Source of the DNA: a virus
Lineage: Duplodnaviria > Caudoviricetes
DNA length: 64,000 nt
Direction: 5' to 3' (one strand)
Virus record (IMG/VR): IMGVR_UViG_3300011008_000021
Coordinates: 1 to 64,000 of that record
Shown: positions 5,241-63,473 of the stretch, piece after piece
Numbering within the stretch: the first letter of the stretch is position 1
How the letters are laid out: each line of letters begins with the position of its first letter
Made by a program: the position numbers and the translations under genes
The notes under the pieces: generated by a model
Told to the model about the DNA's origin: nothing
Database searches by the model: none
What the model saw: only the letters and a program-made list of their open reading frames with translations

Positions 5241-6257
5241 TTACTGTAACCTCAACATCTTACAAAAAATTACTTCGATCGTACTTAATGGATTAATATC
5301 ATTTTTTAACATGTTCTTCAATTCTAGAAGTTGATTAGTATAATAATTATAATAGCTTATAGAATTATCAAATAATGTACAACTTTTTAATTCATTTTCC
5401 ATTATCTGAGGTATTTTTGTCATTCTACAATCTTTAAATAAACAGTATTTTGATAAGTCAATACAAAAATCTAAAAACCTGTCAACAAATAATTTTAAAT
5501 CAGTTCCTTCATTATATATCTTGTCAATAATTTCGTACAACTTCTTTTCGTTACCATCAAGTAAGCAGTTCACCAATTCAAAGAAATTAGAATATGAATA
5601 ATCACCTAATGCTTCGATAACATTATTAATAGATAAATCTATATCATACGATGCACATTTTTCTAGATTAGCTATGGCGTCTCTAACCTGACCGTTACTT
5701 ATCTTACTTATATAATTGCAGGCATCGTTGTAATTTAAAAATCCCTCATTTTTACATATATCAATTAATCTTTCTTCAATGTCTTTTGGATTAATTCTAT
5801 TAAAATTAAAAATCTGACATCTATTCTTAATAGTATCAGGAATTTTATTTTTTTCTGTGGTGCAAAAAATAAATATAGTATATGCGGGTGGCTCCTCAAT
5901 ACATTTAAGAAAAGCCTGCCACGACTGAGAAGTTAAGGAATGTGCTTCATCAATTATATAAACTTTATACTCCGAATCTAAAGATCTTTCGTTTGCAGAT
6001 CTGATTATTTCTTTTACATTTTCAACTCCGTTATTAGATGCTGCGTCAATTTCTATTGGAGAACCTTTACCGTTATTAATTTCATTTGCTAATATTCTAG
6101 CACATGTTGTCTTTCCACAACCTGAAGACCCTTGAAATATATAACAGTTTTTAAATTCTTTTAACTGAACTTGTCTTGTCAAAATTTTCTTTATTGACTC
6201 CTGACCAATAACTGTATCAAATGTTGAAGGTCTACATTTCGTAGCTAAAGATGCCAT
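5241..6257 (-). CDS. dnaX: DNA polymerase III gamma/tau clamp-loader ATPase (gamma-length)
   Basis: RPSTFDTVIGQ, GSSGCGKTT, EIDAASNNGV, IIDEAH, AFLKCIEEPP, TIKNRCQ, GQVRDA. Confidence 0.95.
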   Translation of the reverse strand: MASLATKCRPSTFDTVIGQESIKKILTRQVQLKEFKNCYIFQGSSGCGKTTCARILANEINNGKGSPIEIDAASNNGVENVKEIIRSANERSLDSEYKVYIIDEAHSLTSQSWQAFLKCIEEPPAYTIFIFCTTEKNKIPDTIKNRCQIFNFNRINPKDIEERLIDICKNEGFLNYNDACNYISKISNGQVRDAIANLEKCASYDIDLSINNVIEALGDYSYSNFFELVNCLLDGNEKKLYEIIDKIYNEGTDLKLFVDRFLDFCIDLSKYCLFKDCRMTKIPQIMENELKSCTLFDNSISYYNYYTNQLLELKNMLKNDINPLSTIEVIFCKMLRLQ

Positions 6258-6361
6258 TTAATTTCAACTCCATTTAATTTAACCATATAAATAATAATAT
6301 ATTTTACGGTCTATTAACATTTAATAATATAATTTATTACCTAAACAAGTAATGAAGATTT

Positions 6362-6724
6362 TCATAATAAATTAAGTATCTTAACACAATCAATTGGTAA
6401 CCAACCAGACCAACTATTTACAGAATTAACTCCAGTTCCAGATACTTTAATCATATTTCCCATCTTCTCTAATACTTCCACATTCATTAATTTATCTTTT
6501 GGTATAATATTATTATTCCACTGAACATGAAGAATTAAAAATTCTTTTTCTGGATTAAGTAGAGTATCATTTAATTCTATTTTATAATATTTACCTTTTT
6601 CAAAGGATAGGCAGTCTACTGATCTTGTTCCTTTAAAAATAAATATTTCTGTAGTATTATTATCGTATTCCGGTAAAATTGCTACAGAAATATTTTTTAG
6701 TTCTTTTTCTATGAGTTTATTCAT
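6362..6724 (-). CDS. hypothetical protein
   Basis: ORF with overlapping start/stop junction; no motif recognised. Confidence 0.6.
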   Translation of the reverse strand: MNKLIEKELKNISVAILPEYDNNTTEIFIFKGTRSVDCLSFEKGKYYKIELNDTLLNPEKEFLILHVQWNNNIIPKDKLMNVEVLEKMGNMIKVSGTGVNSVNSWSGWLPIDCVKILNLL

Positions 6725-7392
6725 TTTTCTTGTAACTCATTAATTGATAATATCATTTCTGTACTTTCATCAACATAAGCAGATAACATATCTGCTACAT
6801 GAAGTAATACAGCTAATGGAAATCTATTATAAATTGAAGTCACGTTAAATTTAATTGAATCTTCACTCATTCCACCATGATGATGTAAAATAGCAATAGA
6901 TTCTTCAAGAGTTAATGGACAATACTGTCTTATCAGAAACTCTGAATTAATTTCATGGTTTCCATAAATGAACCTATTTTCTGAATCTCTAACCTTATAA
7001 TCAGCTAACTGCATCCAATCATATCTTCCACCAGTGTCGTATTTAGAACCACTCTCGCTGTAGACTTTCTGGTTCTTATAGTAAATCTCATAAAAATTCT
7101 TTTTTGACAAATCATGAAATAATGAGACAATCTTAACACTATCTTCATCAATTTTCATGTCTTTCATCAAAATTAATTTACAAAGATTATCGTAGACATT
7201 TAGCGTATGTTGAACAAGTCCGCCTTTAAATGAGTTATGATATTTTGTAGAGGCTGGAGCAACATACCAATCTGAATTTTCTAAATGACTCAAGAGAAGG
7301 TCTTTATTAAAACCTTCTCTTGAAATTGTTTTAACTAAATCGATAAATCTAATTTTATTATTTTCAATCTGTTTCTGTGAAAGCATTACCAC
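6721..7392 (-). CDS. HD-domain phosphohydrolase (YhaM/Cbf-like HD core)
   Basis: APASTKYH..GGLVQH, LFHDLSK, ILHHHG, LLHVADM. Confidence 0.85.
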   Translation of the reverse strand: MVMLSQKQIENNKIRFIDLVKTISREGFNKDLLLSHLENSDWYVAPASTKYHNSFKGGLVQHTLNVYDNLCKLILMKDMKIDEDSVKIVSLFHDLSKKNFYEIYYKNQKVYSESGSKYDTGGRYDWMQLADYKVRDSENRFIYGNHEINSEFLIRQYCPLTLEESIAILHHHGGMSEDSIKFNVTSIYNRFPLAVLLHVADMLSAYVDESTEMILSINELQEK

Positions 7393-7631
7393 ACCCTAAT
7401 AGAATCTAAATAATTTGTAACTACTCTAATGACATCTTTATCTTCATTGTACATAGCAAGTTTTCTGAGATACGCACCCTGCTTATGAAGCTTATATTTT
7501 GGATCTACATGGTATCTAACCGTAGCAGGTGCAATATTGTACGCATTAGACAACTGTGCAATACTAACACCACTTTCATACAGCTTCTTCATAATTACTT
7601 CATTGTTCTTCGTAACCTTCATAAACATCAA
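7386..7631 (-). CDS. small helix-turn-helix protein
   Basis: LYESGVSIAQLSNAYNIAPATVRYHV HTH pattern. Confidence 0.6.
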   Translation of the reverse strand: MMFMKVTKNNEVIMKKLYESGVSIAQLSNAYNIAPATVRYHVDPKYKLHKQGAYLRKLAMYNEDKDVIRVVTNYLDSIRVW

Positions 7632-7673
7632 TCCTTTCGTTTATAGAATATAAAAATAATGATTATAAGCTAT

Positions 7674-8042
7674 TTATCTAGGTCTATGACCATACACGTC
7701 TTTATACCAATCACTATACCAATCGAACCAATCATTATTAGCATCGTTCTTATGCTTATTATAATAAGCTCTTAATTTCTTTTTTTCGTTTTTATTTTCC
7801 TTAATTCTGGTGTCATAATTTTCAATAAATGTTGCAACAGAATTGATATTGTTTCCACCTACCCAGGGAAGGGAACAATTAACAAGGAAGTAATCAATTT
7901 CATCAAAAGAAGAAATATTAAAACCACAAGTAATAATAGTGATCTTCTCGCCAGTGTTCTTCATTTCAATAGTGATCTCTTTGAAGTTGCTCTTAGCAAG
8001 TCTTTCTGTAAGTTCCTTCACTATTCTGTCGTGCATGGTCAT
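7674..8042 (-). CDS. hypothetical protein with its own sigmaA-type promoter
   Basis: RBS AAGGAAGG; C-terminal WYSDWYKDVYGHRPR. Confidence 0.65.
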   Translation of the reverse strand: MTMHDRIVKELTERLAKSNFKEITIEMKNTGEKITIITCGFNISSFDEIDYFLVNCSLPWVGGNNINSVATFIENYDTRIKENKNEKKKLRAYYNKHKNDANNDWFDWYSDWYKDVYGHRPR

Positions 8043-13457: not shown

Positions 13458-14141
13458 TTATCTATTACTATTTTCTATATCTTCTACTATTGACTTTACT
13501 TTATATGTAATTGGAAGACATAAAGTTTCAATACATATCTGAATGAATGGACAATTAAGAACCATTATCAATTTAGTAGATAAAGGTAAGAATGAAAGAC
13601 CTATAAAAGTAAATATAGCTCCATCAACATATTTACCAGCAAGTGATGAAAGGATAGCCCTGACACCAAAAAATTTAGAACTCTGATTTCTTTCCTTTAG
13701 TTTCTTAAATACAATATCATTTGCAAGATCTCCAAACCAAAAAGCTACTATTGATCCAATAGCAATTCTTGGTGTGTTTCCTAAAATAGAAATGAATGCG
13801 TCCTGATTTACCCAAGAACTGTTTCCTGGAATTGCAATAGAAATCGTAAATAATATTGAACATAATGCTGTTCCAATAAATGCCCAAGTAGCAGTTACTC
13901 TTGACCATTTATATCCATATACTTCACTAAATACATCAGACAAAATATAAGTAATTGGAAATGTAAGAATTGAACAGGTATTAGCTAAATACGGTATACC
14001 AAATAAATCAATTGATTTAACAACTAAGATATTAGATAGAATAAGTGAAAGAACAAGTATCAATGTCAACGACATTTGTAATGACGATACATTCTTTTCT
14101 GGACTAAGAATACTAAAACCTGCTAAATCATTCTTTTTCAT
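13458..14141 (-). CDS. yhhQ: queuosine-precursor (preQ0/preQ1) transporter, YhhQ/VUT family, copy 1
   Basis: SNILVVK, FPITYILSDVFSEVYG, PRIAIGSIVAF, RAILSSLAGKYVD; multiple TM helices. Confidence 0.88.
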   Translation of the reverse strand: MKKNDLAGFSILSPEKNVSSLQMSLTLILVLSLILSNILVVKSIDLFGIPYLANTCSILTFPITYILSDVFSEVYGYKWSRVTATWAFIGTALCSILFTISIAIPGNSSWVNQDAFISILGNTPRIAIGSIVAFWFGDLANDIVFKKLKERNQSSKFFGVRAILSSLAGKYVDGAIFTFIGLSFLPLSTKLIMVLNCPFIQICIETLCLPITYKVKSIVEDIENSNR

Positions 14142-14151
14142 TTAATTAAAT

Positions 14152-14192
14152 CTCCTTTGGTTTTTTATAGTGGTATTAACTGCGGACCACTT
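14152..14192 (-). promoter_or_regulatory. preQ1-I-like riboswitch candidate
   Basis: AGUGG-UCCGCAGUUAAUA-CCACU-AUAAAAAACCAAAGGAG running into the RBS of yhhQ copy 1. Confidence 0.65.
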
Positions 14193-14196
14193 ATCA

Positions 14197-15120
14197 TTAA
14201 AATAGTTGTACTTTTTCTGCGACAGGATTATATTTACATACATAATTATCCTGCCATTCTTTTAAAACTCTGATATTAAAAATTAATCTATCTTTATCAA
14301 CACTCTTAAGATGCTCAACAGTGAATCCTCTATCTTCAACATATTTATCAATTGACTCTCTTAATGCTTTTGATCTATTTATATAATTATCATTTTTTGC
14401 GAATGATCTGTCACCAATTAAAAATGTTTTTTTTCCTACTATAATAGATCCAGTAACAGCAGTTTTTAACCATGTTGTACTATCTGCTGAAGTAATAGGA
14501 AACATTTCTAGAGCCTCAAGATCTGTACATCCAAAAGCGTGTGTTTTTACATCAGGATTTGAGCTTGATTTTATTATTTTAAACCACTCATCAAAATATT
14601 GTCTACGTTGATTATGATAAGCTCTCTGAGGAGCACCTAATCCAATATATTTAATATGATGTCCATCTTTATGAGTCCATTCAAGCAGATTATGCAATCT
14701 CTTAATATTTTCACCTGCGTGATATAGAGGTATTAATTTATCGACATATTCTGGCTTTAACCGATCTATCATGTAAAGATAATTTTCCCAGGTGTCTTGT
14801 TGACAAATTTCTTTTTCTGCGTCAGTCATATCAGGATCTTGAATATGATCAACTTGTGCAAAAATCTCTACTACATCACCGATTTCATTTATAAAATGAA
14901 TATAATCATCAACATCAACAGTCTTACCTAGATTATAAGCTGAATAAGCTCCACTGTCAATAAAAAATTTACCTTTATATTGTGGATTTTTTCTTAAGAA
15001 CTCAACCCACTCCATAATATCATTACGATCATTAAGGTTGGAGAATAAACGATTACACTCCAACCTCTTGATCTCTTGTTCTGCTATTTCAATTGAACTA
15101 CCTGCAAAATATAAATCCAT
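14197..15120 (-). CDS. TGT-fold transglycosylase, DpdA-like (7-deazaguanine insertion)
   Basis: FIDSGAYS, IPLYH, YIGLG, THAFG, SADSTTW; flanked by two YhhQ genes. Confidence 0.75.
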   Translation of the reverse strand: MDLYFAGSSIEIAEQEIKRLECNRLFSNLNDRNDIMEWVEFLRKNPQYKGKFFIDSGAYSAYNLGKTVDVDDYIHFINEIGDVVEIFAQVDHIQDPDMTDAEKEICQQDTWENYLYMIDRLKPEYVDKLIPLYHAGENIKRLHNLLEWTHKDGHHIKYIGLGAPQRAYHNQRRQYFDEWFKIIKSSSNPDVKTHAFGCTDLEALEMFPITSADSTTWLKTAVTGSIIVGKKTFLIGDRSFAKNDNYINRSKALRESIDKYVEDRGFTVEHLKSVDKDRLIFNIRVLKEWQDNYVCKYNPVAEKVQLF

Positions 15121-15163
15121 AAATTATCTACCTTAAAAATTATTATGCTAATTATAACATATA

Positions 15164-15847
15164 TTATTCAGTTTGTAAAGTCGGACTTGATGTAAAGATA
15201 TAAAATAGTGGTGTATCACATAATGCAATTATAGCTTTAACAATCCACTGTCCAATAATCATATTTATCATGATTGGAATCATTGTAGAATCAAACAACC
15301 ATCCAAATCCAAATCCAAATGCAATTACAACATATATAATGCTGTCAATAATCTGACTTGAAATCGTACCTACATTATTCCAAATCCATTTTCCTTTAAT
15401 TACATTTTCTTTTCCATACTTAGAAATAAACCAATTTCTAATACCATGGAAAACAATAAGATCGAAATGTTGTGAACAAAGATAAGCAGTAAGACTTGCA
15501 ACTACAAATACCCAATTCTGACCAAGTAATGCTACATAATGGACCTGCATTTCTGGATCTGATGGAACAAGATATCTTGCCGCAATTACAAAGAAAGTTG
15601 AGACAAGCTGACAAACAAATCCAAAACGAACTGCCATCTTTGATTCTTCTTTACCCCATATTTCTCCAATGATGTCAGTAATTAAGAATGTCACTGGATA
15701 ACAAATTGCACCTACTGTTAAAGAAACAGGAGATCCAAAAAGATTAAATGGCATTAAAAATACCTTGCTTGCAATACAATTGCATGTAACAAGACAAGTT
15801 GCAAAAATCATGTACAAAAATAATAGTGACTCATTAGTCTTTTTCAT
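15164..15847 (-). CDS. yhhQ: queuosine-precursor transporter, YhhQ/VUT family, copy 2
   Basis: NCIASK, YPVTFLITDIIGEIWG, ASLTAYLCSQHFD, WNNVGTISSQIIDS, KAIIALCDTPLFY. Confidence 0.9.
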   Translation of the reverse strand: MKKTNESLLFLYMIFATCLVTCNCIASKVFLMPFNLFGSPVSLTVGAICYPVTFLITDIIGEIWGKEESKMAVRFGFVCQLVSTFFVIAARYLVPSDPEMQVHYVALLGQNWVFVVASLTAYLCSQHFDLIVFHGIRNWFISKYGKENVIKGKWIWNNVGTISSQIIDSIIYVVIAFGFGFGWLFDSTMIPIMINMIIGQWIVKAIIALCDTPLFYIFTSSPTLQTE

Positions 15848-15858
15848 TAAATTTTAAA

Positions 15859-15926
15859 CTCCTTCGTTTAATAAGTTGGTAAGGATAAACAACTATCCTC
15901 ATTTTAGTTGGTAGGACTAAACAACA
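15859..15926 (-). promoter_or_regulatory. tandem preQ1-I-like pseudoknot aptamers (riboswitch candidate)
   Basis: GUUG-UUUAGUCCUAC-CAAC-UAAAAUG-AGGA then AGUUG-UUUAUCCUUAC-CAACU-UAUUAAACG-AAGGAG; loop UCCU(U) complements (A)AGGA, and the second is the RBS. Confidence 0.6.
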
Positions 15927-15959
15927 TGAATTAGCATAATAATATTATATACAATCTAT

Positions 15960-17069
15960 TTAAATAAACTTCATTATATGCAGGTATTTATTCCAGCTAT
16001 TATCGTGCTTATCTACGATATACTGTAATTCTTTTTTGTCAAATTCTTTATTAATAAGTTTATACAGTTTTTCTTTACAATCTTCAAGATTTCTTTTTTC
16101 ATAAAGGTATTTTGGATTACCTTTTAATTCGTACTCAAAATCTTTCCAAATAGGATATAATGGATTACATTCAAAAGTAATTGCTTCCAGAAGTGTCCAG
16201 CTGACCCAATCTTGATTAGCACAATTAAATACAACCGAAGCTCTACTAAGTAATTCATAATAAGTTAATTTATTTGAAGTATCAACAACTTCAAGATTCG
16301 AACCTTCTTTTGAAGTGATTTTATTCAATCTATCAACAACTTCTTTATTAGAAGTGATAGATCTTGTACTTCTTGGATTAACTAATTTAAATTTAATATC
16401 TGGACAAGCTTCTACCAGGTCAAGAAAGAACATTGGATCTTTTTCATCGTCAAATCTTGATGCAAATAAGACAAATGGTTCCTTATTGAATTTTTTCAAC
16501 CCAATCTCATTAAGTTGTTCTTTTAATCTCCTACTATTGTAAGGAAGACCTACATGAAAAATATTATCTTCCCTTGCAATACCAGCAACAATGCACAGTT
16601 GTCTAAGAATATGAGAACAGGTAAAAATAAAATCAAACTGCTGACCAAATCCTTGTTCAATTGGTCTCATCCAATCTTTCATCTTCCAAGCAAAATCAGT
16701 GTCATCAACTGATTGTGCATGAATGAATGTACCAATCTTAAAATGCATCTTTTTTAATTGACGAATATAAAATAGACTTTCAATGCCAGGATGCCAAAAA
16801 TCTTCAACATACACAACATCATTATCAGTTAATTCACCATTTTCAATTAACTCTATTAATTTCATGATTTGTGATAATGCAAAATAACATCTTCCAGAAG
16901 CATCCAGAACTACACCGTCTTTAATTGTATTACTAATGCTAATACCATCAACTCTTACAAAATCAATATTATTTGTTTTAAAATTATCTTCAGCCCACCC
17001 ATTGATAGAAGACATAAAATATGTATATCTTTCAATATAAGGCTCGATTGGAACATAAAATAATCTCAT
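15960..17069 (-). CDS. GT-B fold glycosyltransferase (GT4-like)
   Basis: VLFASRFDDEKDP, YYELLSRASVVFN..QDWVSWTLLEA..CNPLYP. Confidence 0.8.
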   Translation of the reverse strand: MRLFYVPIEPYIERYTYFMSSINGWAEDNFKTNNIDFVRVDGISISNTIKDGVVLDASGRCYFALSQIMKLIELIENGELTDNDVVYVEDFWHPGIESLFYIRQLKKMHFKIGTFIHAQSVDDTDFAWKMKDWMRPIEQGFGQQFDFIFTCSHILRQLCIVAGIAREDNIFHVGLPYNSRRLKEQLNEIGLKKFNKEPFVLFASRFDDEKDPMFFLDLVEACPDIKFKLVNPRSTRSITSNKEVVDRLNKITSKEGSNLEVVDTSNKLTYYELLSRASVVFNCANQDWVSWTLLEAITFECNPLYPIWKDFEYELKGNPKYLYEKRNLEDCKEKLYKLINKEFDKKELQYIVDKHDNSWNKYLHIMKFI

Positions 17070-17072
17070 TTC

Positions 17073-17537
17073 TTAATCCTCGTATAAAAGTTTATCGTTT
17101 CCTTCAAACATTCCATCTGTATTTAATTCAGATAAAGAAGTCTTACAATCATGTTGAGATAGATTCAAGACATAAACGCAGTCCTTCTTATCTTTTAATT
17201 TTAAAGAAACATTTTCCGGTATAAGTTCAGAATAATTATTTAGTTGAGTTAAAATAACATTATCAAATAATCTATAATCTACGGATGGCAAAAACCTTTC
17301 TGTAACCTCAACTATAAGTTTATAGTTATTTTTTAAATAATCTAACTCTTCATCAGTTGCACTAAGACATATTAGATTATTTTGATTAGCACCAAAATAA
17401 ATAGAAATATTAATAAGATTATTATCATTTAATATTTGAATTAATTTCGATGCAGAAACTACACTACTATCAACAAACAAGGTGAGATTTCCATAATTTA
17501 GATTATGCTCTACCTCAGTGCCTAACCAACATCTCAT
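17073..17537 (-). CDS. hypothetical protein in modification cluster
   Basis: WLGTEVE..GNLTLFV, IYFGANQ; translationally coupled to neighbours. Confidence 0.6.
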   Translation of the reverse strand: MRCWLGTEVEHNLNYGNLTLFVDSSVVSASKLIQILNDNNLINISIYFGANQNNLICLSATDEELDYLKNNYKLIVEVTERFLPSVDYRLFDNVILTQLNNYSELIPENVSLKLKDKKDCVYVLNLSQHDCKTSLSELNTDGMFEGNDKLLYED

Positions 17538-17878
17538 ACTCTATACTCCAGTACACATCCATTTTCATTATCTTCATTTACAGTTATTTCAATATCTCTA
17601 TGACACCCATAAGTATTCTGAATAACTTCTAAAAGGTCATCTGCAATTGATTCGCATGATTTATTTGAAAGTGACGATATATTTATATTATCTTCAATAA
17701 AATGTTTAAACATGATAAACTCTATTTCTCTATCATTATTGAAGACTTCTATCTTTACCTGAATATGTGCCACGTGACGATGTGGATATCTTAGATAACT
17801 TACTTCATCAGGAGCATCTTTGTATTGATGAATAAATTCAGTTTGAGTGGTTACATAAATAAATACTTTCTTACTCAT
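17534..17878 (-). CDS. QueD/PTPS-like T-fold protein
   Basis: H..(F)IH, PHRH metal-ligand motif, DREIEFI, SCESIA, VNEDNENG. Confidence 0.6.
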   Translation of the reverse strand: MSKKVFIYVTTQTEFIHQYKDAPDEVSYLRYPHRHVAHIQVKIEVFNNDREIEFIMFKHFIEDNINISSLSNKSCESIADDLLEVIQNTYGCHRDIEITVNEDNENGCVLEYRV

Positions 17879-17883
17879 ATCCT

Positions 17884-18998
17884 CTATCCTAATAATTCAA
17901 TTAATTGATCTTCAGTACATTCTAAATGATTATTTTTAAGATAATTAAATGCTTCTTCTTTGGAATATGATTTTAGCAAATCTTCATATTCTTCTTTTAG
18001 ATTTGAAGAAAACACATCTAGATACCAAGATCGAAAACTATCTGCATCACACTTCATTGGAACAATACATTCTGGCTTAGCAGAATTGATCATTAACTCG
18101 GATAATCTCTTTTTGACACCTTCTTGATTTTCAATAGGACATTCTCCTATTAATTCATCATGAACTGCAATAAGCAATTTAAATCCAAAATCTCGTAACT
18201 GTTTATCATTATAAACTGCTATCATTGCTCTTTTGGACATCGAAGCTGCACCACCCTGAACTCTAGCATTTACACATTGTCTCTCAGCCTGTGCAATAAA
18301 CCCACCATTATCATGAATCTCTATACCATCTTTCAATGCTTTTGATTTCAGTTCATCAAGTTCTTTTTTAGATTTACATGAATAACACTGCTTCTTATAT
18401 TTATCAATTATAACAGAATTTGTATTAGAATACAAGCCCTTACTTCCAATTAATGGATTAAAATTATCTACGGAAGATCCGTTTTTATTTTTTAAAACAA
18501 ATTTATCTAATTGAATATCAGGTAATCTTCGTCTTCTTCCCCAACAATCTTCAACATATCCATTTTTCTTGGCATCCAACTGAGTTTGATCAATCCACTT
18601 CTTTACCTTTGGAAATCCATTAAAGAAATCATCAGTTACTTTTTGAGCTTCTAAAATATCCTCCTTTGTAGCAGGTCCTTTATGAGTTTTAATTTGATCT
18701 GCTATTGATGCAACACCACGACCGTACATCAATCCTAACAGTAAACTCTTAACATTAGTTCTTCTTTTTTTACCTTCTGGATTCATTGTTCCATCAGGAT
18801 AGAATTCTCTATTGTCTTCATAATTATTATGATAAACATGTGAAGCAATAGTTGCGTATAGATCTTTCCCTTCTTTATAGGCGTTGATCATATTTTCATC
18901 TTGAGCATAATTCGCCAATAAACGAGGTTCCTGTTGCGCTACGAAAAGTCAGATCCAACAAGAATATTTTTCTTTCTTACCTTTACCGACTTCTTAAT
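17884..18998 (-). CDS. polA: family A DNA polymerase, C-terminal part; 19-codon leader 18998-18942 (ATT start) must be joined to 18936-17884 across a 5-nt insert
   Basis: Motif A ILVGSDFS/QQEPR, motif B RTNVKSLLLGLMYG, AERQCVNARVQG, motif C VHDE; RBS AAGGTGA 5 nt before ATT. Confidence 0.88.
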
Positions 18999-19926
18999 TT
19001 AAATCACCTTCTTTCTTATAAATCCATTTTATTATATCATCTACAAAAATATCTTTATCAGCGGATTTTTTTATATTATTTGCTAACTGATATGTATTTT
19101 TTGGTTTTTTGCGAATCCAATAATCACTATTAACCCACCAATCACATGCATCCTTTAAGGAATTAAATTCTTTTATAAAATTAGAATTTTTATCAATACA
19201 AAAAACTTTTTTATAATGACTCTCAGCTGTTATTTTAACTAATTCTTTTTTTCTTGGAAAGTTACCTTTAATCCAACCTTCAGATATCAATTTATCAATA
19301 TCTACCTCTTCAGGTTTTACTTTTATGAGTTCTGATTCCCCTCTATGAAAAAATTTAAATCCTTTACTACTTTCAGAGATTTTTTTTCTGTGTTCTTCAC
19401 TAAAGAACTCACCATTTCTAATATGTTCTTTCATAGTATTACTTATCTTGGATCTTACCTCTTCTGTTTGCATTACTTTATCGTGATAAGATTTATGAAT
19501 TTCATTCTTCATACTATTAAATTCACTCAATATCGATCTAGATTGTTCATAGTAAGCTTGAAAATCAGGTAATTTATCTAAACATTGCTGTTCGGATTTT
19601 GGAAAATTAAAATGACCAAAAATCTTGAATATTGCACAAGCATTTCCTTTCTTATATAAGGAGTTATCTGGAGAACAGAGAAATAAATAATAGTGGGCCA
19701 GAACGTGATCCTTATATAAAAGATTAACTCTATTAGACCTGGTATTATCTAATTTTTTACCAACTGACTTATAATAGTATCTTGGAATAATGTGATGAGA
19801 CTGAGTCTTTCCTTTTTGATATGTTCTGTTTAAATTACAATTAATTAATTGAATATACTTATCTAGATAACTATTCTCAATACAAATATTATTTTCTAAT
19901 AGAAAATCTTTGATATCTAAAATCAT
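18994..19926 (-). CDS. free-standing HNH homing endonuclease with NUMOD3/NUMOD1-like repeats
   Basis: QSHHIIPR..NRVNL..DHVLAHYYL; SEEHRKKISES; KVFCID..FNSLKDA; lies between the polA halves. Confidence 0.85.
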   Translation of the reverse strand: MILDIKDFLLENNICIENSYLDKYIQLINCNLNRTYQKGKTQSHHIIPRYYYKSVGKKLDNTRSNRVNLLYKDHVLAHYYLFLCSPDNSLYKKGNACAIFKIFGHFNFPKSEQQCLDKLPDFQAYYEQSRSILSEFNSMKNEIHKSYHDKVMQTEEVRSKISNTMKEHIRNGEFFSEEHRKKISESSKGFKFFHRGESELIKVKPEEVDIDKLISEGWIKGNFPRKKELVKITAESHYKKVFCIDKNSNFIKEFNSLKDACDWWVNSDYWIRKKPKNTYQLANNIKKSADKDIFVDDIIKWIYKKEGDLN

Positions 19927-20000: not shown

Positions 20001-21596
20001 TTAACTAAAGATAAACTCTATTTTTTTGTCATCAATTTGATTAATTGTTAAAATCTGTAAATCTTCGATATAATCACCTACACTCAAATTTTTAGCACTA
20101 ACCCAATTCTCATTAGATAAAACTTCATCATCACTTGCTAGAATTAAGGAGTTGTTGACTAATTCTACATCAAGCTCAGTATACCCTGCTGTAAACATCA
20201 TTCTTATTTCATTATTATGTGATGGTATATTCTGAAGATTCGGATCTGAAGAACTAAATCTTCCAGTATCAGCACCAATCTGATTAAAATGAGCATGAAG
20301 TCTGTTATCTTTTTTAGAAATACATTCTGGTAACTTGTCAATATAAGTATTAATAAGTTTTAACAAACCTCTGTTTTCTAAAATTAATTTACAGATATTA
20401 TATTGAGGATATTTATCACTTATTTTCTTTAAAATTTCTTCCCCTGTTCCTCTGGGAGATTTTTTCTCTATTCCTTCTTCAATACCTAAAATATCATATA
20501 AAAGAATTGCAAGTTGTGTAGGACTTGCAACATTTATTGGATCCTCAAGTTGCTCAACTTTTGATTTTCCGAAACCTTTACCTGTTTTTTTAAGAGGTTT
20601 TAAATTTGCTTCCTTTGTTAATTTCCAATTATTTATTTGATCAGTGTATTTGGATAATTCCGCCTTGATTTTTAAATTACATTCATCTAAAAGTTTATGA
20701 TATTTATTACTTAATCTTTTTGAATAATCTAAATCTAAACATATACCTGTTAATTCCATTTCTGCTGAAACAATTACAATAGGCATTTCTATATTCATAA
20801 AAAGATTAAATAATTTTTCATTACCTGGTCTGTTGAATTCTTTAACCTGATATTCATATAACTTATATGTCATAAAAGCATCAGTTGCAGCATACAAGGA
20901 AAAGATTTCTGGATCTACGATCGCATACTCTATTTTTTCAAATAGATGTTCTATATCATATTTTTCAATCGAAGAATCAATCTTTGTAATATATTGTTCC
21001 TTTAACCCAGCTCGTTCATTCTCATTTAGAATTCGAGCTCCTATCATTGTATCCCAATATATTGGCAATTCAATATCACAGGTACATTTAACTACTTGAT
21101 AATCAAATTTTCCATTATGCATTATAATCTTAACATTATTATCAATTAATCTTTGTAGTTGTGTTTGTATCTGAAATTCAGTTATTTGGGGAATATCTTC
21201 GAACTCGTTTAACGACTTTAATCTTTTATGATGAACAGGAATATATAAATTTTTACTACCTGATGTATATAAACATAAACCCATTAACTTGCAAGTTAAT
21301 GGGTCCAAGCTATTATCTGTCTCTGTATCAACAGCAATAATTCCATTTTTTATGGCATTATCTATATAAGATATAAAATCATTATATTCATATATAACAG
21401 ATGTATTTTCTTTATATGAACCTAAAATTCTATTAACTTCAGAAGAAATTGCACTCAGTTTTTGAGTGATATCTACTTTTGAACTGAGTGCTTTCTTAGT
21501 TTTAGGTACTATCGGCTTGTTTACTTTTTCTATAACTTTTTTTGTTCTAGAAACTGTCTCTTTAACAGAAAATTCTTCGCCCCATAAGGAAGACAT
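20001..21596 (-). CDS. polA: family A DNA polymerase, N-terminal part (3'-5' exonuclease, thumb, start of palm)
   Basis: VDTET, HNGKFD, YAATDA, INVASPTQL, TGRFSSSDPNLQNIP. Confidence 0.92.
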   Translation of the reverse strand: MSSLWGEEFSVKETVSRTKKVIEKVNKPIVPKTKKALSSKVDITQKLSAISSEVNRILGSYKENTSVIYEYNDFISYIDNAIKNGIIAVDTETDNSLDPLTCKLMGLCLYTSGSKNLYIPVHHKRLKSLNEFEDIPQITEFQIQTQLQRLIDNNVKIIMHNGKFDYQVVKCTCDIELPIYWDTMIGARILNENERAGLKEQYITKIDSSIEKYDIEHLFEKIEYAIVDPEIFSLYAATDAFMTYKLYEYQVKEFNRPGNEKLFNLFMNIEMPIVIVSAEMELTGICLDLDYSKRLSNKYHKLLDECNLKIKAELSKYTDQINNWKLTKEANLKPLKKTGKGFGKSKVEQLEDPINVASPTQLAILLYDILGIEEGIEKKSPRGTGEEILKKISDKYPQYNICKLILENRGLLKLINTYIDKLPECISKKDNRLHAHFNQIGADTGRFSSSDPNLQNIPSHNNEIRMMFTAGYTELDVELVNNSLILASDDEVLSNENWVSAKNLSVGDYIEDLQILTINQIDDKKIEFIFS

Positions 21597-57558: not shown

Positions 57559-60500
57559 TCAGTCAGTAATCTCACCTGCTACAATAAGGTCTGAATTCAG
57601 AACCTTAAGATCGTACAGAGTTGACCAACCTTGTGATGTACCACCATCAGCATACTGAAGAAGCTGAGTAGGAACAATAGGCATGTAAGGTGCATACACA
57701 GCAACTGAACTCATTAAGTCGTCACCGTTAACACCAACTAAATATCTGTTTGCAGCAATTGCTGGTGAAACAAAGACCTTTAACCCATTGAGGGTACCTG
57801 CAAAATATGGACCGTTGATTGATCCAGTAGGAGCTGCGTTCCATCCATCAATAAATGTAAGGATAGGAATAATATTAGATGCAACTACCATATAGTTAGG
57901 AGCAACATTAATCTTTAATATGATTCGCTACATCATATTGGGAATTTTTATTCCCCACTTATTTTCATAAGTGATGAGACTATATCTTCATCTTTTCGGA
58001 TGTGACTTACTTCCACTTCGCTTGAAGTGTACTCCCTTTCGGGATAGTCGTTGGGGCTGAATCCCATTAGGATTCCTGCCTGCTGATTATCCAATCCTAC
58101 AACTTTTTAAACCATCATATATTCATTACTGATATATTGTGGTATGTAGGCTCTAAGGATTTTCCAGCATATCAAGTCATTTATTATTCAAACATGTTTC
58201 CATGTAAGCGAGACTTGTTTACCTAATTGTAAACTTGATTTATCAATATATTTGTTATATATTATGCTGCTAATAATAAATCAGTTAATCTCTTTGTCTT
58301 ATCGTAGATAAGTTGTCTTGCAATCTCAACTATCTCAGTAAATCCTGCATAGTGATCTCTCTTGCTAACACCAACAGGAAGTGTCTTGCTCCATGCAAGT
58401 GCGGTCTGTGCAGTTCCTGCTGTTTCATCAAGTAACTGAACTACTTCTGTATCAATTTCATATGAAAGCTGTCCAACTGCCTTCTCAGCTAACTGATCTC
58501 CAAGATCAAATCCATAATCAGTCTTAGCTTGGAATGCTGCCATTTGGCTTGCGTATCTTACGTTTATATCGTTTCCATATAAACTCTATATATTACTACA
58601 TAGGCGGGACTATATCATATTCTTAATTTCTTTTACCAAAACTAAGAATCCATGCACTTCGATTCCACTTAGAATCTACTCTACTTTCTTGTTCACTTAT
58701 GTCTTTCTCATAAGATATGATTTCGATAGTCTCTGAACTTTACTTTCATAATAGAAAGTCTTAGCTGCTGATTGTCCTATTAGCATGGCAATTCTAATAG
58801 GAGTTTCCAGCAATTCACATGGTTTTTCATAATTTATTTCATTAAACTCAATTTGGATAAATCACTTCATAATTTAAATTATTAAGAGTTGCATAATTTC
58901 TTTTTTGAACATCCCTTTTTGTCCAAACATCTATAATCATATTAGACCAATCTGTATTATCTTTCTTTAACTGCTCTAATAATTTTAAATCGTCTGAATT
59001 ATTTTCATCAAATGGATGTCCACCATGGGATGGGTGATAATTAACTTCTATAAATTTATCTTCTGACTTAATATAAAAATCACAATCAAAAGGGTATCTC
59101 TCATCAGAATATTGTCTAACAATATCTGACTCATCATACATTTCTAATAAACACTTGTATAATTCTTCTTCAGGTTTTGACTTATTAAAAGAATTATTCT
59201 TTTTCATTGTTTCAAAATGCTGATTCCAAATATCCTTATTCTTTAAAGGATTTGTTACACCATAATTCTTTAACAATGTCTTTGTATATTTATCTCTACT
59301 TTCAGGAACTAAATTAGGTGATTTTTGACCATATCTTTCCAACATAGTATTTTCATATTTCTGTTGAGCTTCTTCGGTCTTTTTAGAATCACTTATTTTC
59401 TTCCTTATCTCTGGACTTTGATTGTGTTCTTTATAACCATATCTTTCTAAACTTGTTTGTTGTGCTTTTTCATAATTATTATAATTAGCATCTCCATATC
59501 TATCAAGCTTAGTTTGTTTTACCTTTTCAACATTTGTTAAACTCTTTTTACCATATCGTTTCATCATGGTTGAATTACGAGCTTCTCTAAAATGTTTCTT
59601 TTGTTCATCGGTTAAATATCTTCTACCCATATTTACTCTCCTAATAGTAAAAATATATAAATGTAGTAATCTAAAGAATTTAGGACTTCTTTAAAAACAG
59701 TTTGCAACCTGCTGTCCTACATTATAATCATATTATAACACAATTATAATGATTTGTAAATTGAGATTTAATTTATAAAATTAAGCTACAGCTTTTAAGT
59801 CTTTATAGTAGACTGCGATTCTTCTGGCCTTTGCAATTAATGGAATGCTCTTCATTTCAGCCTTAAGCATTGGAAGATCATTTTGAGGAATTACAACATT
59901 ATCGTAAACATAAGCAACTTTAACAGTATCAGTAGCTCCAATAGCAGTACCAGTACCATTTGAAAGAGTTAATGTTTTTCCATCGGTTGCAACAGTAACT
60001 GATGCATCATCTGCAACAGGAACTGCAACTCCAGCAGATGTGGTTATAGAAGTAATTCTTGCTTTTGATGCTGTATCAGGTCCATTATAAACTGGGAACC
60101 AAGAAGCAGTAACAGCAGCATTGGCACCTGTGAATGATTCTACCACTCTTGCAGCAGTATAATTAGGATCAACATTTCCTAATTTAAATGGGCTGTTAAA
60201 GACATCGCCGTTAGTGGTTTCGCCCTTTGTAGACCCAGCCTGATATTCAATCAATCATGTTAATCATAAATATTCTTAATATATAACTTTATAATTTAAA
60301 TTATTTTCTTTAGCAACTCTTTGTTTTTCAACATCTCTCACTGTCCATGTTTGAATAGCATTTTGATAAAATTGAGATGTTTTAGCTTTTTCTTTCCACT
60401 CATTAAGTTGCTGAATACATTCTTCATCATCTGGATTAAATGGTTTACCACCATGTGTCCAATGAGCATTTAACTCTATAAATAAATCATCTTCTACAAT

Positions 60501-63473
60501 ATAGAAATCACAATAAAATGGATATCTATCCTTATCCTTGTAATTTCTTAATATTGTTTTATTAGAATAATCTTTTAATAATGATTCATATAATTCATTT
60601 TCAGGCTTAGATGTATTAAAAGAATTATTCTTTTTTCTTGTCAAATACTGTTTATTAGTTTTAATAATGAGTCTATCTTTAGGAAGGTGTTTACCTTTTA
60701 AAGAAATGGAATTAGATTCTCCAATTCTCCTTTTATGTTCCTCAGATAAGTGTTTGCCTTTATTATAACTCGTAGAACCATATCGTTCTATTCTTGTGTT
60801 ATTGGAATGTTCGGAATAACTTCTAACACGCTTATCCGTATCCTTGGTTAAACCTTTATTCCAAACACTGATCTCATTAGTAGAATATCTTTCTTTAAGT
60901 GTTTTACTTATTTTTTCTTTTACTTCTTTTGAAACAGATTTACCTTTATTTGAAGGACTTCTACCAATACGTTTTTTTCTGTTTTCTTCCTTGTGTTTTT
61001 CAGAAACACCTTTTATCCACCCTTCATTTAGATATCTCTGTAATTCATTTGGATAAATTCTTTTTTCCAAATCATCCTTATGAATAACTATTCTACCTTT
61101 TTGAGTATTTGAACATTTTTCTGATTTATTCATTTGTTGAATTCTCCATAAAGAATATATAATTTAAAATTATTACATTATAAGTTATGGCTTATAATGT
61201 TTGAGGTCATATATCAGTAATATCAAATTCTTAATATTACTATTAAGTTCAGACTATATCATATTCCTATATCGTGTTAACCTTTATAGGAATCCATGCA
61301 CTTCGGATATTCCATAATATCCTACTCTACTCACTTACCATATAAAGTATTTCTCTTTATAATCCGTTTTCGATAGTCGTTGAACCTTCCTATTGATTAA
61401 TCATATTATAATTAGTGAAATTCGTCAATAGGCTTGGCTTCTGATTGTCCTGCTGGCTAATACAGGATATTCCAGAAATTCACATGGTATTTTTTCATAT
61501 GCATTACTGCATACGCATACTGAATTTCAATATGTGACATATCCAGACATAGAACTCATCAATTATGTTACGAATATATCGTTTCCATATATTCTCATTA
61601 TATTACTATAATGTTCAGACTATATCATTATCCTATATTCTATTACCGTTTATAGGATACCACACATTTCGAAAATACTTATTTTCTACTCTACTCACTT
61701 ACCATATAAAGTATTTCTCTTTATAATCCGCTTTCGATAGTCGTTGAACCTTCTTCTTTTTAAAGAAGCTTGGCTGCTGATTGTCCTAAATACTATGTCA
61801 TATATATATAGGGTTTTCCAGCAATTAATGTGGTTTTACATATTGTTTAATTTATTTATCTATAATAAGTCCGTTTGGATATATAATTTTAAAATTTAAA
61901 TTATTGTTTCTAAAAGTTTGAAGTTTTTTTGGATCTATTTCGGTCCACCATTTATAGATATTCCAATATCTACTTCTTGGACCTTTCTGTTCAGCTTTAG
62001 ATCTAATTTGTTCTGCTTCTTTTATATGTTCTTCATTATTAGGATCAAAAGGTCTTCCATTATGTTCTATTGTTCCATTTACTTCAATAAATAAATCTTC
62101 TGAAGCAATATAGATATCACAATTATATGGATAACGAACATCTCTATATGGATGAATTACATCTTCTTCACCATATTCTTGTATCAACTCATTTATTAGA
62201 TCTTTTTCTACTTTTGATGAGTTGAAGCTACTATTTTTCTTTTTAGTAGAATATTCTTTTTGTTTTGCAAGTTCCCAATCTTTTACAAAACATTCATGTC
62301 CTTTTAGTTTATTGCTAGCAGACATCAAAGAAGCATTTGTTTCTTTAGTTAAGCCTTTATTCCAAGGTACATGACCCATCATGGATTGAGATTGCTTTAA
62401 TTTTCTCTCTTCACTTGCAGGTATTCCTTTATTCCAAGGTTCTTTTCCTTTTCGATAAAGACTTAATTTTTTAGAAATAGTTTCTAAACTATCATTTGTA
62501 TCCTTAGTTAACCCTTTGTTCCAAGAAACATAATTTCCTTTTTGTAATCTTGTTTCCTTTGTTGCTTGTCCATTAGCTTTAACTCTTTCATCTGTTTCAG
62601 CAGTTAAACCTTTATTCCAAGGATTAGATTTAAAGGTTCTTCCTGGATAAAAACCAAGCGGTATATCATCACCAGGTTTTAACTTGATAGTTCTAACTCC
62701 ATTAGTGAAAAATTTTATTTTATCCCCTTCATAAATATCTTCTATCAACTTAAATTTAAATTTCACAATAAATAAATTAATATATGTATCATTATATATT
62801 ACTACATAATGCCCCTGAGGTTAAGGGTGAACAATTACAAGATCGTTGGCAATTAAATTCGGAAGTGCGACATTTGTTAAATTTAAACAAAATTTCTTAA
62901 ACATTCCCATGTCTGCTCTCTGAGTAGCAGAAGAAGCATCAAATGCCTCGTTTAAGAAATCTTGAGTGTTCTTTAAGCAACGAGCCAGTGTAATTTTTCT
63001 ATTATTATCCATCTTTTCTCCAAGATGTGATTTTCCGTAGACTGACTCAGCAATTTGAATTCTCTTTTTATCAAATATGTTACGAATTAATCGTGTCCAT
63101 TAATTCTCTATATGTTTCCATATAGTTCAGACTATATCATATACCTCAATTGTTTTAACCTTTTAAGGTACCCCATCACTTCGAAAATACTATTTTCTAC
63201 TCTACTTTGTTATTCATATAAGTATTTCTCTTATATTATCATTTCGATAGTCGTTGAACCTTCCGTTCAAAGAACGGCTTGGCTGCTGATTATCCCTGGC
63301 TAAAGGATTTTCCAGCAATTCAATGGGTTTTATTAAACTAATGTTTATTTATTAATAACTAAATTTTTATATATTATTTCAAAATTTAAATTATTATCTC
63401 TAAATATTAGTTCCACATATTACTATGTGGAAGCTCAAAAAATTTAAGCTTCAACTAAATTCTGATTAGCCAT
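57559..63473 (-). CDS. major capsid protein (T4 gp23-like), 453 aa, six exons: 63473-63446, 63071-62824, 61559-61530, 60251-59805, 58549-58288, 57905-57559
   Basis: Exons sum to 1362 nt and join in one frame: LPNLIANDLVIVHP|MSSMSGYVTY|IEY, AKARRIAVYY|SQMAAF, LSYEIDTE, KR|FAPNYMV, VYAPYMP (gp23-like motifs). Confidence 0.92.
57906..58287 (-). mobile_element. group I intron 5 of the capsid gene (382 nt, no ORF)
   Basis: P1 GAGAU/GUCUC with U-G; core UGCUGGAAA, AAUCAGCAGG, CAACGACUA, AAGAUAUAGUCU; ends AUG (omega-G). Confidence 0.9.
58848..59630 (-). CDS. intron-encoded Vsr-like (EDxHD/PD-(D/E)XK) homing endonuclease with YG repeats
   Basis: Repeated T..E/KRYG units; SKPE..RYPFDCDFYI..FIEVNYHPSHG. 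Confidence 0.8.
   Translation of the reverse strand: MGRRYLTDEQKKHFREARNSTMMKRYGKKSLTNVEKVKQTKLDRYGDANYNNYEKAQQTSLERYGYKEHNQSPEIRKKISDSKKTEEAQQKYENTMLERYGQKSPNLVPESRDKYTKTLLKNYGVTNPLKNKDIWNQHFETMKKNNSFNKSKPEEELYKCLLEMYDESDIVRQYSDERYPFDCDFYIKSEDKFIEVNYHPSHGGHPFDENNSDDLKLLEQLKKDNTDWSNMIIDVWTKRDVQKRNYATLNNLNYEVIYPN
59732..59760 (-). promoter_or_regulatory. sigmaA-type promoter inside intron 4, upstream of the endonuclease ORF
   Basis: TTTACA, 17 nt, TGnTATAAT. Confidence 0.65.
60252..61529 (-). mobile_element. group I intron 3 of the capsid gene (1278 nt, ORF 3' of the core)
   Basis: P1 CAUAU/GUAUG; P4 covariant UUUCUG/CAGAAG; UUCAACGACUA; AUGAUAUAGUCU; ends UUG. Confidence 0.9.
60276..61133 (-). 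CDS. intron-encoded Vsr-like homing endonuclease with NUMOD3-like repeats
   Basis: NKGK..SEEHK repeats, WNKGLT; SKPE..RYPFYCDFYI..FIELNAHWTHG. Confidence 0.8.
   Translation of the reverse strand: MNKSEKCSNTQKGRIVIHKDDLEKRIYPNELQRYLNEGWIKGVSEKHKEENRKKRIGRSPSNKGKSVSKEVKEKISKTLKERYSTNEISVWNKGLTKDTDKRVRSYSEHSNNTRIERYGSTSYNKGKHLSEEHKRRIGESNSISLKGKHLPKDRLIIKTNKQYLTRKKNNSFNTSKPENELYESLLKDYSNKTILRNYKDKDRYPFYCDFYIVEDDLFIELNAHWTHGGKPFNPDDEECIQQLNEWKEKAKTSQFYQNAIQTWTVRDVEKQRVAKENNLNYKVIY
61560..62823 (-). mobile_element. group I intron 2 of the capsid gene (1264 nt, ORF 5' of the core)
   Basis: P1 CCCU/GGGG; AAUUGCUGGAAA, AAUCAGCAGCCAAG, UUCAACGACUA, AUGAUAUAGUCU; ends UUG. Confidence 0.9.
61852..62766 (-). 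CDS. intron-encoded Vsr-like homing endonuclease with WNKG repeats
   Basis: Four (P/S)WNKG(LT) repeats; SKVE..RYPYNCDIYI..FIEVNG...H. Confidence 0.8.
   Translation of the reverse strand: MKFKFKLIEDIYEGDKIKFFTNGVRTIKLKPGDDIPLGFYPGRTFKSNPWNKGLTAETDERVKANGQATKETRLQKGNYVSWNKGLTKDTNDSLETISKKLSLYRKGKEPWNKGIPASEERKLKQSQSMMGHVPWNKGLTKETNASLMSASNKLKGHECFVKDWELAKQKEYSTKKKNSSFNSSKVEKDLINELIQEYGEEDVIHPYRDVRYPYNCDIYIASEDLFIEVNGTIEHNGRPFDPNNEEHIKEAEQIRSKAEQKGPRSRYWNIYKWWTEIDPKKLQTFRNNNLNFKIIYPNGLIIDK
63072..63445 (-). mobile_element. group I intron 1 of the capsid gene (374 nt)
   Basis: P1 GAAGCUU/GAGCUUC with U-G; full P4/P7 core motifs; ends UUG. Confidence 0.9.
63345..63407 (-). pseudogene. 3'-terminal remnant of a deleted endonuclease ORF in intron 1
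   Basis: IFRDNNLNFEIIYKNLVINK* versus intron-2 ORF end TFRNNNLNFKIIYPNGLIIDK*. Confidence 0.75.

Follow-up and report, generated by a model that had tools for sequence, protein, structure and literature searches.

In this study we describe a cluster of six genes on the IMG/VR virus record IMGVR_UViG_3300011008_000021 (100,764 bp), the first 64 kb of which (64,000 nucleotides) form the stretch of DNA analysed here, called the window. The cluster encodes a DNA guanine transglycosylase (DpdA), the QueD paralogue DpdL (p114), a small protein named p154, a glycosyltransferase (GT) and two YhhQ-type transporters (YhhQ_a and YhhQ_b). It very probably constitutes a DNA 7-deazaguanine module, and with somewhat better than even confidence we favour the view that this module belongs to the DpdL branch and exchanges guanine in the DNA of the phage itself for a derivative of 7-deazaguanine that the GT decorates. 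That the GT takes part in the deazaguanine pathway is likely; that virion DNA ends up with a sugar on the base through its action is at best an even prospect. Tentatively, glycosylated 7-deazaguanine might be present in the virion DNA of the window lineage and of three cultured phages, PA5oct, ACP17 and BUCT-ZZ01; the window phage would build it entirely from scavenged material, with DpdL and p154, as a diverged 'shadow' QueD/QueE pair, preparing the base for DpdA and the GT.

The proposed pathway would run in four steps. No base would be synthesized from GTP; instead, two YhhQ-type permeases would import a deazaguanine precursor. DpdL and p154, a putative QueE derivative lacking the iron-sulfur cluster, would then process the base, the reaction proposed for DpdL being the decarboxylation of 7-carboxy-7-deazaguanine (CDG) to 7-deazaguanine (PMC10516641). 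DpdA would swap guanine in DNA for the processed base. Finally the GT, which is GT4-like, would add a sugar from a host nucleotide-sugar to the deazaguanine, most likely after its insertion into DNA. We infer the reaction of DpdL, the substrate of the transporters, the role of p154, the acceptor of the GT and the structure of the final base.

DpdA matches phrog_887 at 2e-48. Its nearest cultured relatives are found in Bacillus phage Flasso and the Streptococcus phages MS1 and Dp-1 (36-39% identity over at least 96% of the length); tblastn returned Flasso at 8e-54, Dp-1 at 4e-49 (96% coverage) and Pseudomonas phage Iggy at 2e-17 (86% coverage). The residues D55, S56, D91, H134, H194, S211, D213 and S214 are invariant in a comparison with Dp-1, Flasso, Iggy, Faecalibacterium phage Roos and 18 metagenomic relatives. 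In Salmonella DpdA the residues D95, D130, H181 and D256 serve as general acid/base, base-recognition residues and nucleophile (PMC10164549), and D55, D91, H134 and D213 would be their counterparts, as judged by spacing only and not by direct alignment. Single-sequence and profile searches of PDB sequences with DpdA gave nothing meaningful. The homologies and the invariant aspartates and histidines identify as DpdA a gene that the original prediction, made from the sequence alone, had described as DpdA/TGT-fold (TGT, tRNA-guanine transglycosylase).

DpdA being a TGT-family enzyme, it might be possible that the module is directed at tRNA or the host queuosine pool, for example in order to rewire translation, and not at phage DNA. 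YhhQ and the preQ1 riboswitch, of which a probable copy is described below, are normally components of tRNA queuosine salvage and would fit such a target. However, we regard this as very improbable. DpdA shows no match to PF01702 at E 0.01 and groups, away from tRNA TGT, with the proven DNA-modifying phage DpdAs of Dp-1 (dPreQ1) and Iggy (dPreQ0), which are the closest characterised ones and share its invariant Asp, His and Ser residues (PMC6884629, PMC10484667). Neither QueA, QueG nor QueH was seen in the context, and the cluster genes lie among polymerase, clamp and recombination genes. Dp-1 also resembles the window in its gene order, with a transporter gene adjoining DpdA, followed by clamp, exonuclease and resolvase. 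Unlike the window, Dp-1 and Iggy encode QueC (Dp-1 also QueF) and insert preQ0 or preQ1, and they possess neither DpdL nor GT nor p154.

One gene that sets the module apart from the Dp-1 type is p114, which had been called QueD-like. The kinship to QueD stands, but p114 is not QueD itself: by its motif and its relatives we assign it to DpdL, a T-fold paralogue of QueD. The residues L29, H33, R34 and H35 do not vary among 16 sequences and make up the motif LxxxHRH, which in place of the CxxxHGH of QueD marks DpdL (Cui, Hutinet et al. 2023, PMC10516641). p114 matches phrog_17812 at 3e-22. By tblastn it is 44% identical to a protein of Pseudomonas phage PA5oct, 42% to one of Acidovorax phage ACP17 (5e-17) and 32% to one of Cellulophaga phage phiST (3e-6). 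In a comparison with phiST CGPG_00067 and the DpdL of ACP17, the family profile matched gp040 of phiST with an E-value of 1.3e-28 and the protein of ACP17 with one of 2e-30. Pfam gave no PTPS match for p114, and the best PDB match was a weak one to the PTPS homologue PH0634 (E 0.064).

The second gene, p154, had been listed as unknown, and it has no match in Pfam, PHROG or NCBIfam; its family comprises 79 protein clusters, all unnamed. When the AlphaFold model of p154 (predicted local distance difference test score, pLDDT, 80) was compared with 48,161 chains, the top three were the QueE enzymes of B. subtilis, B. multivorans and E. coli with Z-scores of 7.5, 7.4 and 6.6 over 125-129 residues, values that, being below 8, are not decisive alone; other radical-SAM (S-adenosylmethionine) enzymes ranked next at Z 5.0-5.5. 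Foldseek paired p154 with B. subtilis QueE 5th5 at a probability of 0.90. With hhalign the p154 profile aligned to the QueE of related phages at E 1e-3, yet with a probability of just 20%. This alignment pairs the p154 segments G-x-E-x-EG...G..F (N-terminal), YFGAG and IEV with the QueE segments GEG, TGGEP and IETNG, and the iron-sulfur loop of QueE falls into a gap. No cysteine is conserved among 14 p154 sequences, and the CxxxCxxC motif of QueE has no equivalent. No usable match came from the ESM Atlas, and a p154 profile found nothing meaningful among PDB sequences. Taken together this is moderate evidence that p154 derives from QueE but lacks the radical-SAM cysteines, a QueE-like remnant rather than QueE, which has probably kept a pocket for a pterin or deazaguanine. 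In two related loci (L015 and L021) p154 is fused to DpdL, of whose protein it makes up the C-terminal half, and this links it to DpdL; p154 is likely a base-binding partner of the latter.

Directly following p154 lies the GT gene. At sequence level it is barely recognisable: Pfam gives only a sub-threshold match to PF00534 (Glycos_transf_1; 16.1 bits against a gathering score of 26.4). The AlphaFold model (pLDDT 95, predicted template-modelling score 0.91) finds the retaining GT4 enzymes BshA, MshA, PimA and PglA as nearest Foldseek neighbours, with E-values of 3e-11 to 6e-10 and template-modelling scores of 0.6-0.7. As modelled, the protein is clearly of the GT-B fold, in agreement with the original prediction, and belongs to a divergent lineage recognisable by structure; T4 glucosyltransferases are GT-B folds as well. 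The donor site supports the assignment. R205, E209, K210 and [D/E]287-x7-E295 are conserved, a profile aligns them with the nucleotide-sugar site of PglH/WlaC, and nine distant members all share R205, E209, K210 and E295, so that the enzyme looks catalytically competent from its residues. In the N-terminal (acceptor) domain E9, R14, Y15, T16, Q67, D84, D90, D122, D125 and W133 are invariant, and the ten are shared by phages whose hosts are gut bacteria, Synechococcus, Pseudomonas and Acidovorax. The family is large: metagenomes contain 195 or more of its protein clusters, none of them with a name.

A survey of gene neighbourhoods, which had been suggested as a check of the original prediction, ties this GT family to the deazaguanine module. 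We searched the open reading frames (ORFs) of 24 IMG/VR loci of the GT family with profiles and counted them together with the window locus; the neighbourhoods in cultured phages were taken from GenBank. The GT stands beside DpdA in all 25 loci. DpdL is present in 23, with none detected in L009 and the locus cut off in L023, and p154 in 19. The linkage of GT and DpdA persists at GT identities of 37-55% and without an adjacent DNA polymerase gene. L009 (9524-12805) keeps p154, GT, DpdA and YhhQ; this fragment is 56% complete and its DpdL may be elsewhere. Three distant relatives (L018, 6292-6906; L020, 8815-9432; L022, 11101-11667) carry genes for SAM-dependent methyltransferases within the DpdL-GT-DpdA core, and it seems that the module diversifies through added tailoring enzymes.

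GT4-type enzymes are common in phages for surface or other targets, a GT-B fold alone does not reveal the acceptor, and the same record encodes another transferase, of the family-2 (GT2) type, distant from the deazaguanine cluster (PF00535, 4e-24; 98110-99150). Hence the GT could be unrelated to deazaguanine, acting on another DNA base, on a phage or host protein or on a component of the cell envelope, and merely share an operon with replication genes. We think this quite unlikely in view of the adjacency to DpdA in every locus and of the pairing with DpdL across very different hosts and gene orders. The acceptor-domain residues that are invariant across these hosts point to a common acceptor and argue against a host-specific surface acceptor. 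5-Hydroxymethyl-pyrimidine was considered as acceptor as well. In four complete relatives neither a ThyA-like (thymidylate-synthase-like) hydroxymethylase nor a hydroxylase homologue was found, so such an acceptor is not expected.

The survey also bears on where the base comes from. Among the 25 loci a QueD-QueE-FolE cassette is found in 15 and YhhQ in 9, and only L007 has both; the closest relatives carry their supply arm between DpdA and the clamp. YhhQ and FolE/QueD/QueE thus alternate as cassettes beside the same core of DpdL, p154, GT and DpdA, so the reading of the cluster as salvage-type, already put forward in the original prediction, holds. That earlier reading had noted the lack of FolE, QueE, QueC and QueF in the window, and this now extends to the whole record: neither QueC, PTPS, FolE nor QueF was found in its 100.8 kb, which is weak evidence given a completeness of ~66%, and none of its ORFs matches a profile built from the relatives' QueE. 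Three complete YhhQ-type relatives with terminal repeats likewise lack FolE, QueC and QueF. The context described for DpdL (DpdA, FolE, QueD and QueE, without QueC) is found in 15 relatives and not in the window, where YhhQ stands in place of FolE, QueD and QueE, giving a variant of the DpdL context.

QueC was found in none of three complete or near-complete genomes of the de novo type. The base of the lineage would for that reason be of the CDG/7-deazaguanine type, as in phiST, and not simply of the preQ0 type. The DpdA-centred 7-deazaguanine module of the original prediction is retained, and on this evidence the lineage is not a preQ0 system. A further candidate, imported queuine that is then glycosylated in the manner of eukaryotic tRNA, was also considered and rejected, the de novo relatives reaching CDG at most and having no QueC, QueA or QueG context.

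Both YhhQ genes of the original prediction hold up as members of that family. YhhQ_a matches Vut_1 at 3e-38 and YhhQ_b at 5e-32, and with 104.6 and 92.1 bits both exceed the curated cut-off (50.95) of TIGR00697, the NCBIfam model for queuosine-precursor transporters (YhhQ/COG1738). Measured against NF008406, the E. coli-type equivalog, both score far under its cut-off. The two are only ~25% identical to each other and differ in their distribution. YhhQ_a belongs to the phage lineage, with 58-63% identity across eight related phage loci and 45% to the YhhQ of Roos. YhhQ_b was not found in the 24 related IMG/VR loci and is confined to the window phage among them, and its identity to many metagenome proteins amounts to 65-81%, with 66% to a protein from a metagenome-assembled genome of an uncultured Clostridia bacterium. 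It is probably host-derived: the gene and its preQ1 riboswitch would have been acquired as one piece from a Clostridia-like host, although Clostridia as the host are only hinted at.

The probable riboswitch lies in the 55-nt gap before YhhQ_b. The full Rfam model RF00522 (PreQ1-I) matches there with 26.2 bits (E 0.035), under the gathering score of 39, and the A-rich tail of the match extends into the ribosome-binding site AGGAG of YhhQ_b. By eye and by alignment the same element was seen upstream of YhhQ_b homologues in six metagenomic loci. In each of the six sequences with both arms present the 5-bp P1 stem is fully paired, two of the pairs being compensatory, and the conserved tail reads UAUAAAAA..AAGGAG. 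None of 11 loci with YhhQ_b homologues gave a PreQ1 match in Rfam at E <= 1, as for a divergent variant. In the bacterial version (L040, 1308-1377) PreQ1 scores 11.7 bits and the Rfam 'DUF805 RNA' RF03081 scores higher with 17.7, both far sub-threshold. Folding of the region was uninformative (z-score -0.3). We consider the element a probable preQ1-class riboswitch, which suggests that YhhQ_b is tuned to preQ1/preQ0 sensing.

Among the closest known systems is the DpdL/DpdA3 system of phiST, in whose DNA the 7-deazaguanine deoxynucleoside (dDG) fully replaces deoxyguanosine (PMC10516641). It shares with the window the LxxxHRH DpdL, a DNA transglycosylase, the lack of QueC and the position beside replication genes, and with the window's relatives also FolE, QueD and QueE. 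In contrast to the window, phiST has no homologues of GT and p154 and makes its precursor de novo, where the window would import it with two YhhQ proteins. Its transglycosylase is a DpdA3, which the profile of the window's Dp-1-type DpdA does not match. The cultured human gut phage Roos is like the window in its salvage-type trio of DpdL, DpdA and YhhQ, and unlike it in lacking GT and p154. The trio of Roos (L034) lies at the genome end (5992-7890), where it is annotated as hypothetical proteins only.

Pairs of GT and DpdL exist in further cultured phages. A GT homologue directly adjoins DpdL in PA5oct and ten close relatives, in ACP17 and BUCT-ZZ01, in the Xanthomonas phages X1 and BUDD, in Burkholderia phage BCSR5 and in Sinorhizobium phage Phosso, with QueD, QueE and FolE near the pair. 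For PA5oct, ACP17 and the Synechococcus phage BUCT-ZZ01 the homologous GT shows 23-33% identity in the alignment and the homologous DpdL 40-44%. These three differ from the window by their de novo supply and by having neither YhhQ nor p154. Moreover, the candidate transglycosylase of ACP17, and that of PA5oct by gene position, is a different and larger protein, with which the DpdA profile barely aligns (ACP17, E 0.049) or which it misses. As the transglycosylase differs between lineages, the conserved unit is GT plus DpdL. The cluster of BUCT-ZZ01 (L025, 1087-1548 and 3004-4347) has two further genes: one for a phosphoribosyltransferase (PF00156, 3e-13), which lies between those for QueE and QueD, and one for another glycosyltransferase, of GT1 type. 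A route at the nucleotide level and a longer glycan are thereby hinted at for this phage.

For two of these phages published data exist. Restriction patterns and targeting by defence nucleases led to the inference that PA5oct DNA contains a modified G of unknown structure (2025 preprint, PMC12191111). DpdL and DpdA of ACP17 expressed in E. coli gave no dDG, and other enzymes were suspected to be necessary (PMC10516641). The GT that intervenes between the two genes was not part of that co-expression. This result would also be in line with a GT that acts in the deazaguanine pathway without decorating the final base, for example by forming a short-lived glycosyl derivative of the free base or as an accessory of DpdA or DpdL, leaving plain dDG or the corresponding CDG deoxynucleoside in the DNA. 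The gene order, which places the GT between DpdL/p154 and DpdA, and the absence of a hydroxyl acceptor on 7-deazaguanine would fit as well. Against this stands phiST, which reaches complete replacement by dDG without a GT homologue, and Roos has no GT either; R205, K210 and E295 for donor binding are conserved as in working GT4 enzymes, and the second GT of BUCT-ZZ01, adjoining the first, fits the building of a glycan. We therefore hold a non-decorating role to be unlikely. A GT missing from phiST and Roos, the former still making dDG, appears as an addition to a working pathway, and this favours the decorating role.

Decoration of the inserted base by the GT would have its working model in T4-type DNA glucosyltransferases and in the arabinosyl-5-hydroxycytosine systems, where sugar is transferred onto a modified base after replication (PMC13216743, PMC13326640). 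However, those enzymes act on hydroxyls of modified pyrimidines, whereas the base linked to the window's GT would be a purine analogue. Candidate acceptors are the CDG carboxylate, C7 and other atoms of the ring or exocyclic to it; a group formed by DpdL and p154, other than the one proposed in the literature, could also serve. In the literature searched we found no description of a glycosylated deazaguanine in DNA or of this GT, and the word 'glycosyl' does not occur in the paper that defined DpdL (PMC10516641).

Several points weigh against the pathway as we propose it. The record is ~66% complete and supply genes could be in the missing part. The GT is unnecessary for the base exchange itself, as judged from phiST and Roos, and 7-deazaguanine offers no obvious hydroxyl as acceptor to a GT4-type enzyme. 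The decarboxylase activity of DpdL is a prediction even in its defining paper (PMC10516641). A YhhQ_b tuned to preQ1/preQ0 sits awkwardly with a pathway based on CDG, and if YhhQ imports preQ0 or preQ1, as the riboswitch hints, the role of DpdL becomes unclear. Finally, for the GT-bearing phages PA5oct, ACP17 and BUCT-ZZ01 no chemical identification of the DNA base was found in the literature searched.

To our knowledge, position 7 bears a small group in every 7-deazaguanine base described from DNA: cyano, amido, aminomethyl, methyl- or formyl-aminomethyl, carboxy, amidino or hydrogen. If the proposal is true, a sugar on deazaguanine would be a new class of purine DNA hypermodification and the first sugar-bearing purine analogue in DNA. 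It would have a bearing on restriction, CRISPR and glycosylase-type defences as well as on DNA-labelling tools, and it could account for the failed heterologous expression of DpdL and DpdA. As PA5oct, ACP17 and BUCT-ZZ01 are cultured, the presence of a glycosylated base is open to direct testing. The window itself contributes the salvage-fed form with its exchange of cassettes, the QueE-like p154 and its fusion to DpdL, the Dp-1-type DpdA as partner and the probable riboswitch. The salvage variant shows that the supply arm is modular, and it predicts that the phage YhhQ carries the precursor required by DpdL. The probable riboswitch would be an added case of a phage retaining ligand-sensing control over a captured transporter gene.

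Position and gene order of the six ORFs, all on the minus strand (13458-17878, downstream of the DNA polymerase), agree exactly with the original prediction and are listed in the table below.

Table. Features of the deazaguanine cluster in the window
Feature	Coordinates	Strand	Remark
p114, assigned to DpdL	17534..17878	minus	4-nt overlap with p154
p154, putative QueE-derived domain	17073..17537	minus	3 nt before GT
GT, predicted GT-B (GT4-like) glycosyltransferase	15960..17069	minus	
YhhQ_a, predicted queuosine-precursor transporter of the phage lineage	15164..15847	minus	
DpdA, DNA guanine transglycosylase of Dp-1/Iggy type	14197..15120	minus	
Probable preQ1-I riboswitch	14151..14196	minus	3' tail reaches the Shine-Dalgarno sequence of YhhQ_b
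YhhQ_b, second predicted transporter	13458..14141	minus	

The completeness of the record was estimated with CheckV; its G+C content is ~28%, and the minus strand carries nearly all genes. A family-A DNA polymerase (polA) in two ORFs lies upstream of the cluster; sliding clamp, resolvase, RecE-like exonuclease, UvsX, clamp loaders and SbcCD lie downstream. The cluster is thus located inside the replication and recombination module. A nucleotide-level search of cultured phages with the cluster DNA gave no match, and a scan of promoters and terminators performed no better than on shuffled sequence.

The N-terminal polA ORF (20001-21596, minus strand) covers the exonuclease and the beginning of the polymerase domain, and the C-terminal one lies at 17884-18918 (minus strand). 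Between the two halves stands a free-standing ORF for an HNH/NUMOD3 homing endonuclease (18994-19926). In relatives polA is intact (~770 aa) or similarly split, and the PA5oct polymerase is likewise interrupted by a homing endonuclease.

Towards the end of the window we found five group I introns on the minus strand, all over the Rfam gathering score (57956-58230, 58586-58870, 61230-61539, 61596-61877 and 63108-63366), and a homing-endonuclease ORF (58848-59630) in the same region. A flanking ORF (57559-57891) matches positions 256-347 of the T4 major capsid protein gp23, and it seems that the major capsid gene is interrupted by several introns. Elsewhere in the record, distant from the deazaguanine cluster, there are genes for a reverse transcriptase (phrog_1423, 2e-47; 73045-74025) and for a Thg1-like tRNA-His guanylyltransferase (phrog_4717, 3e-84; 96875-97672).

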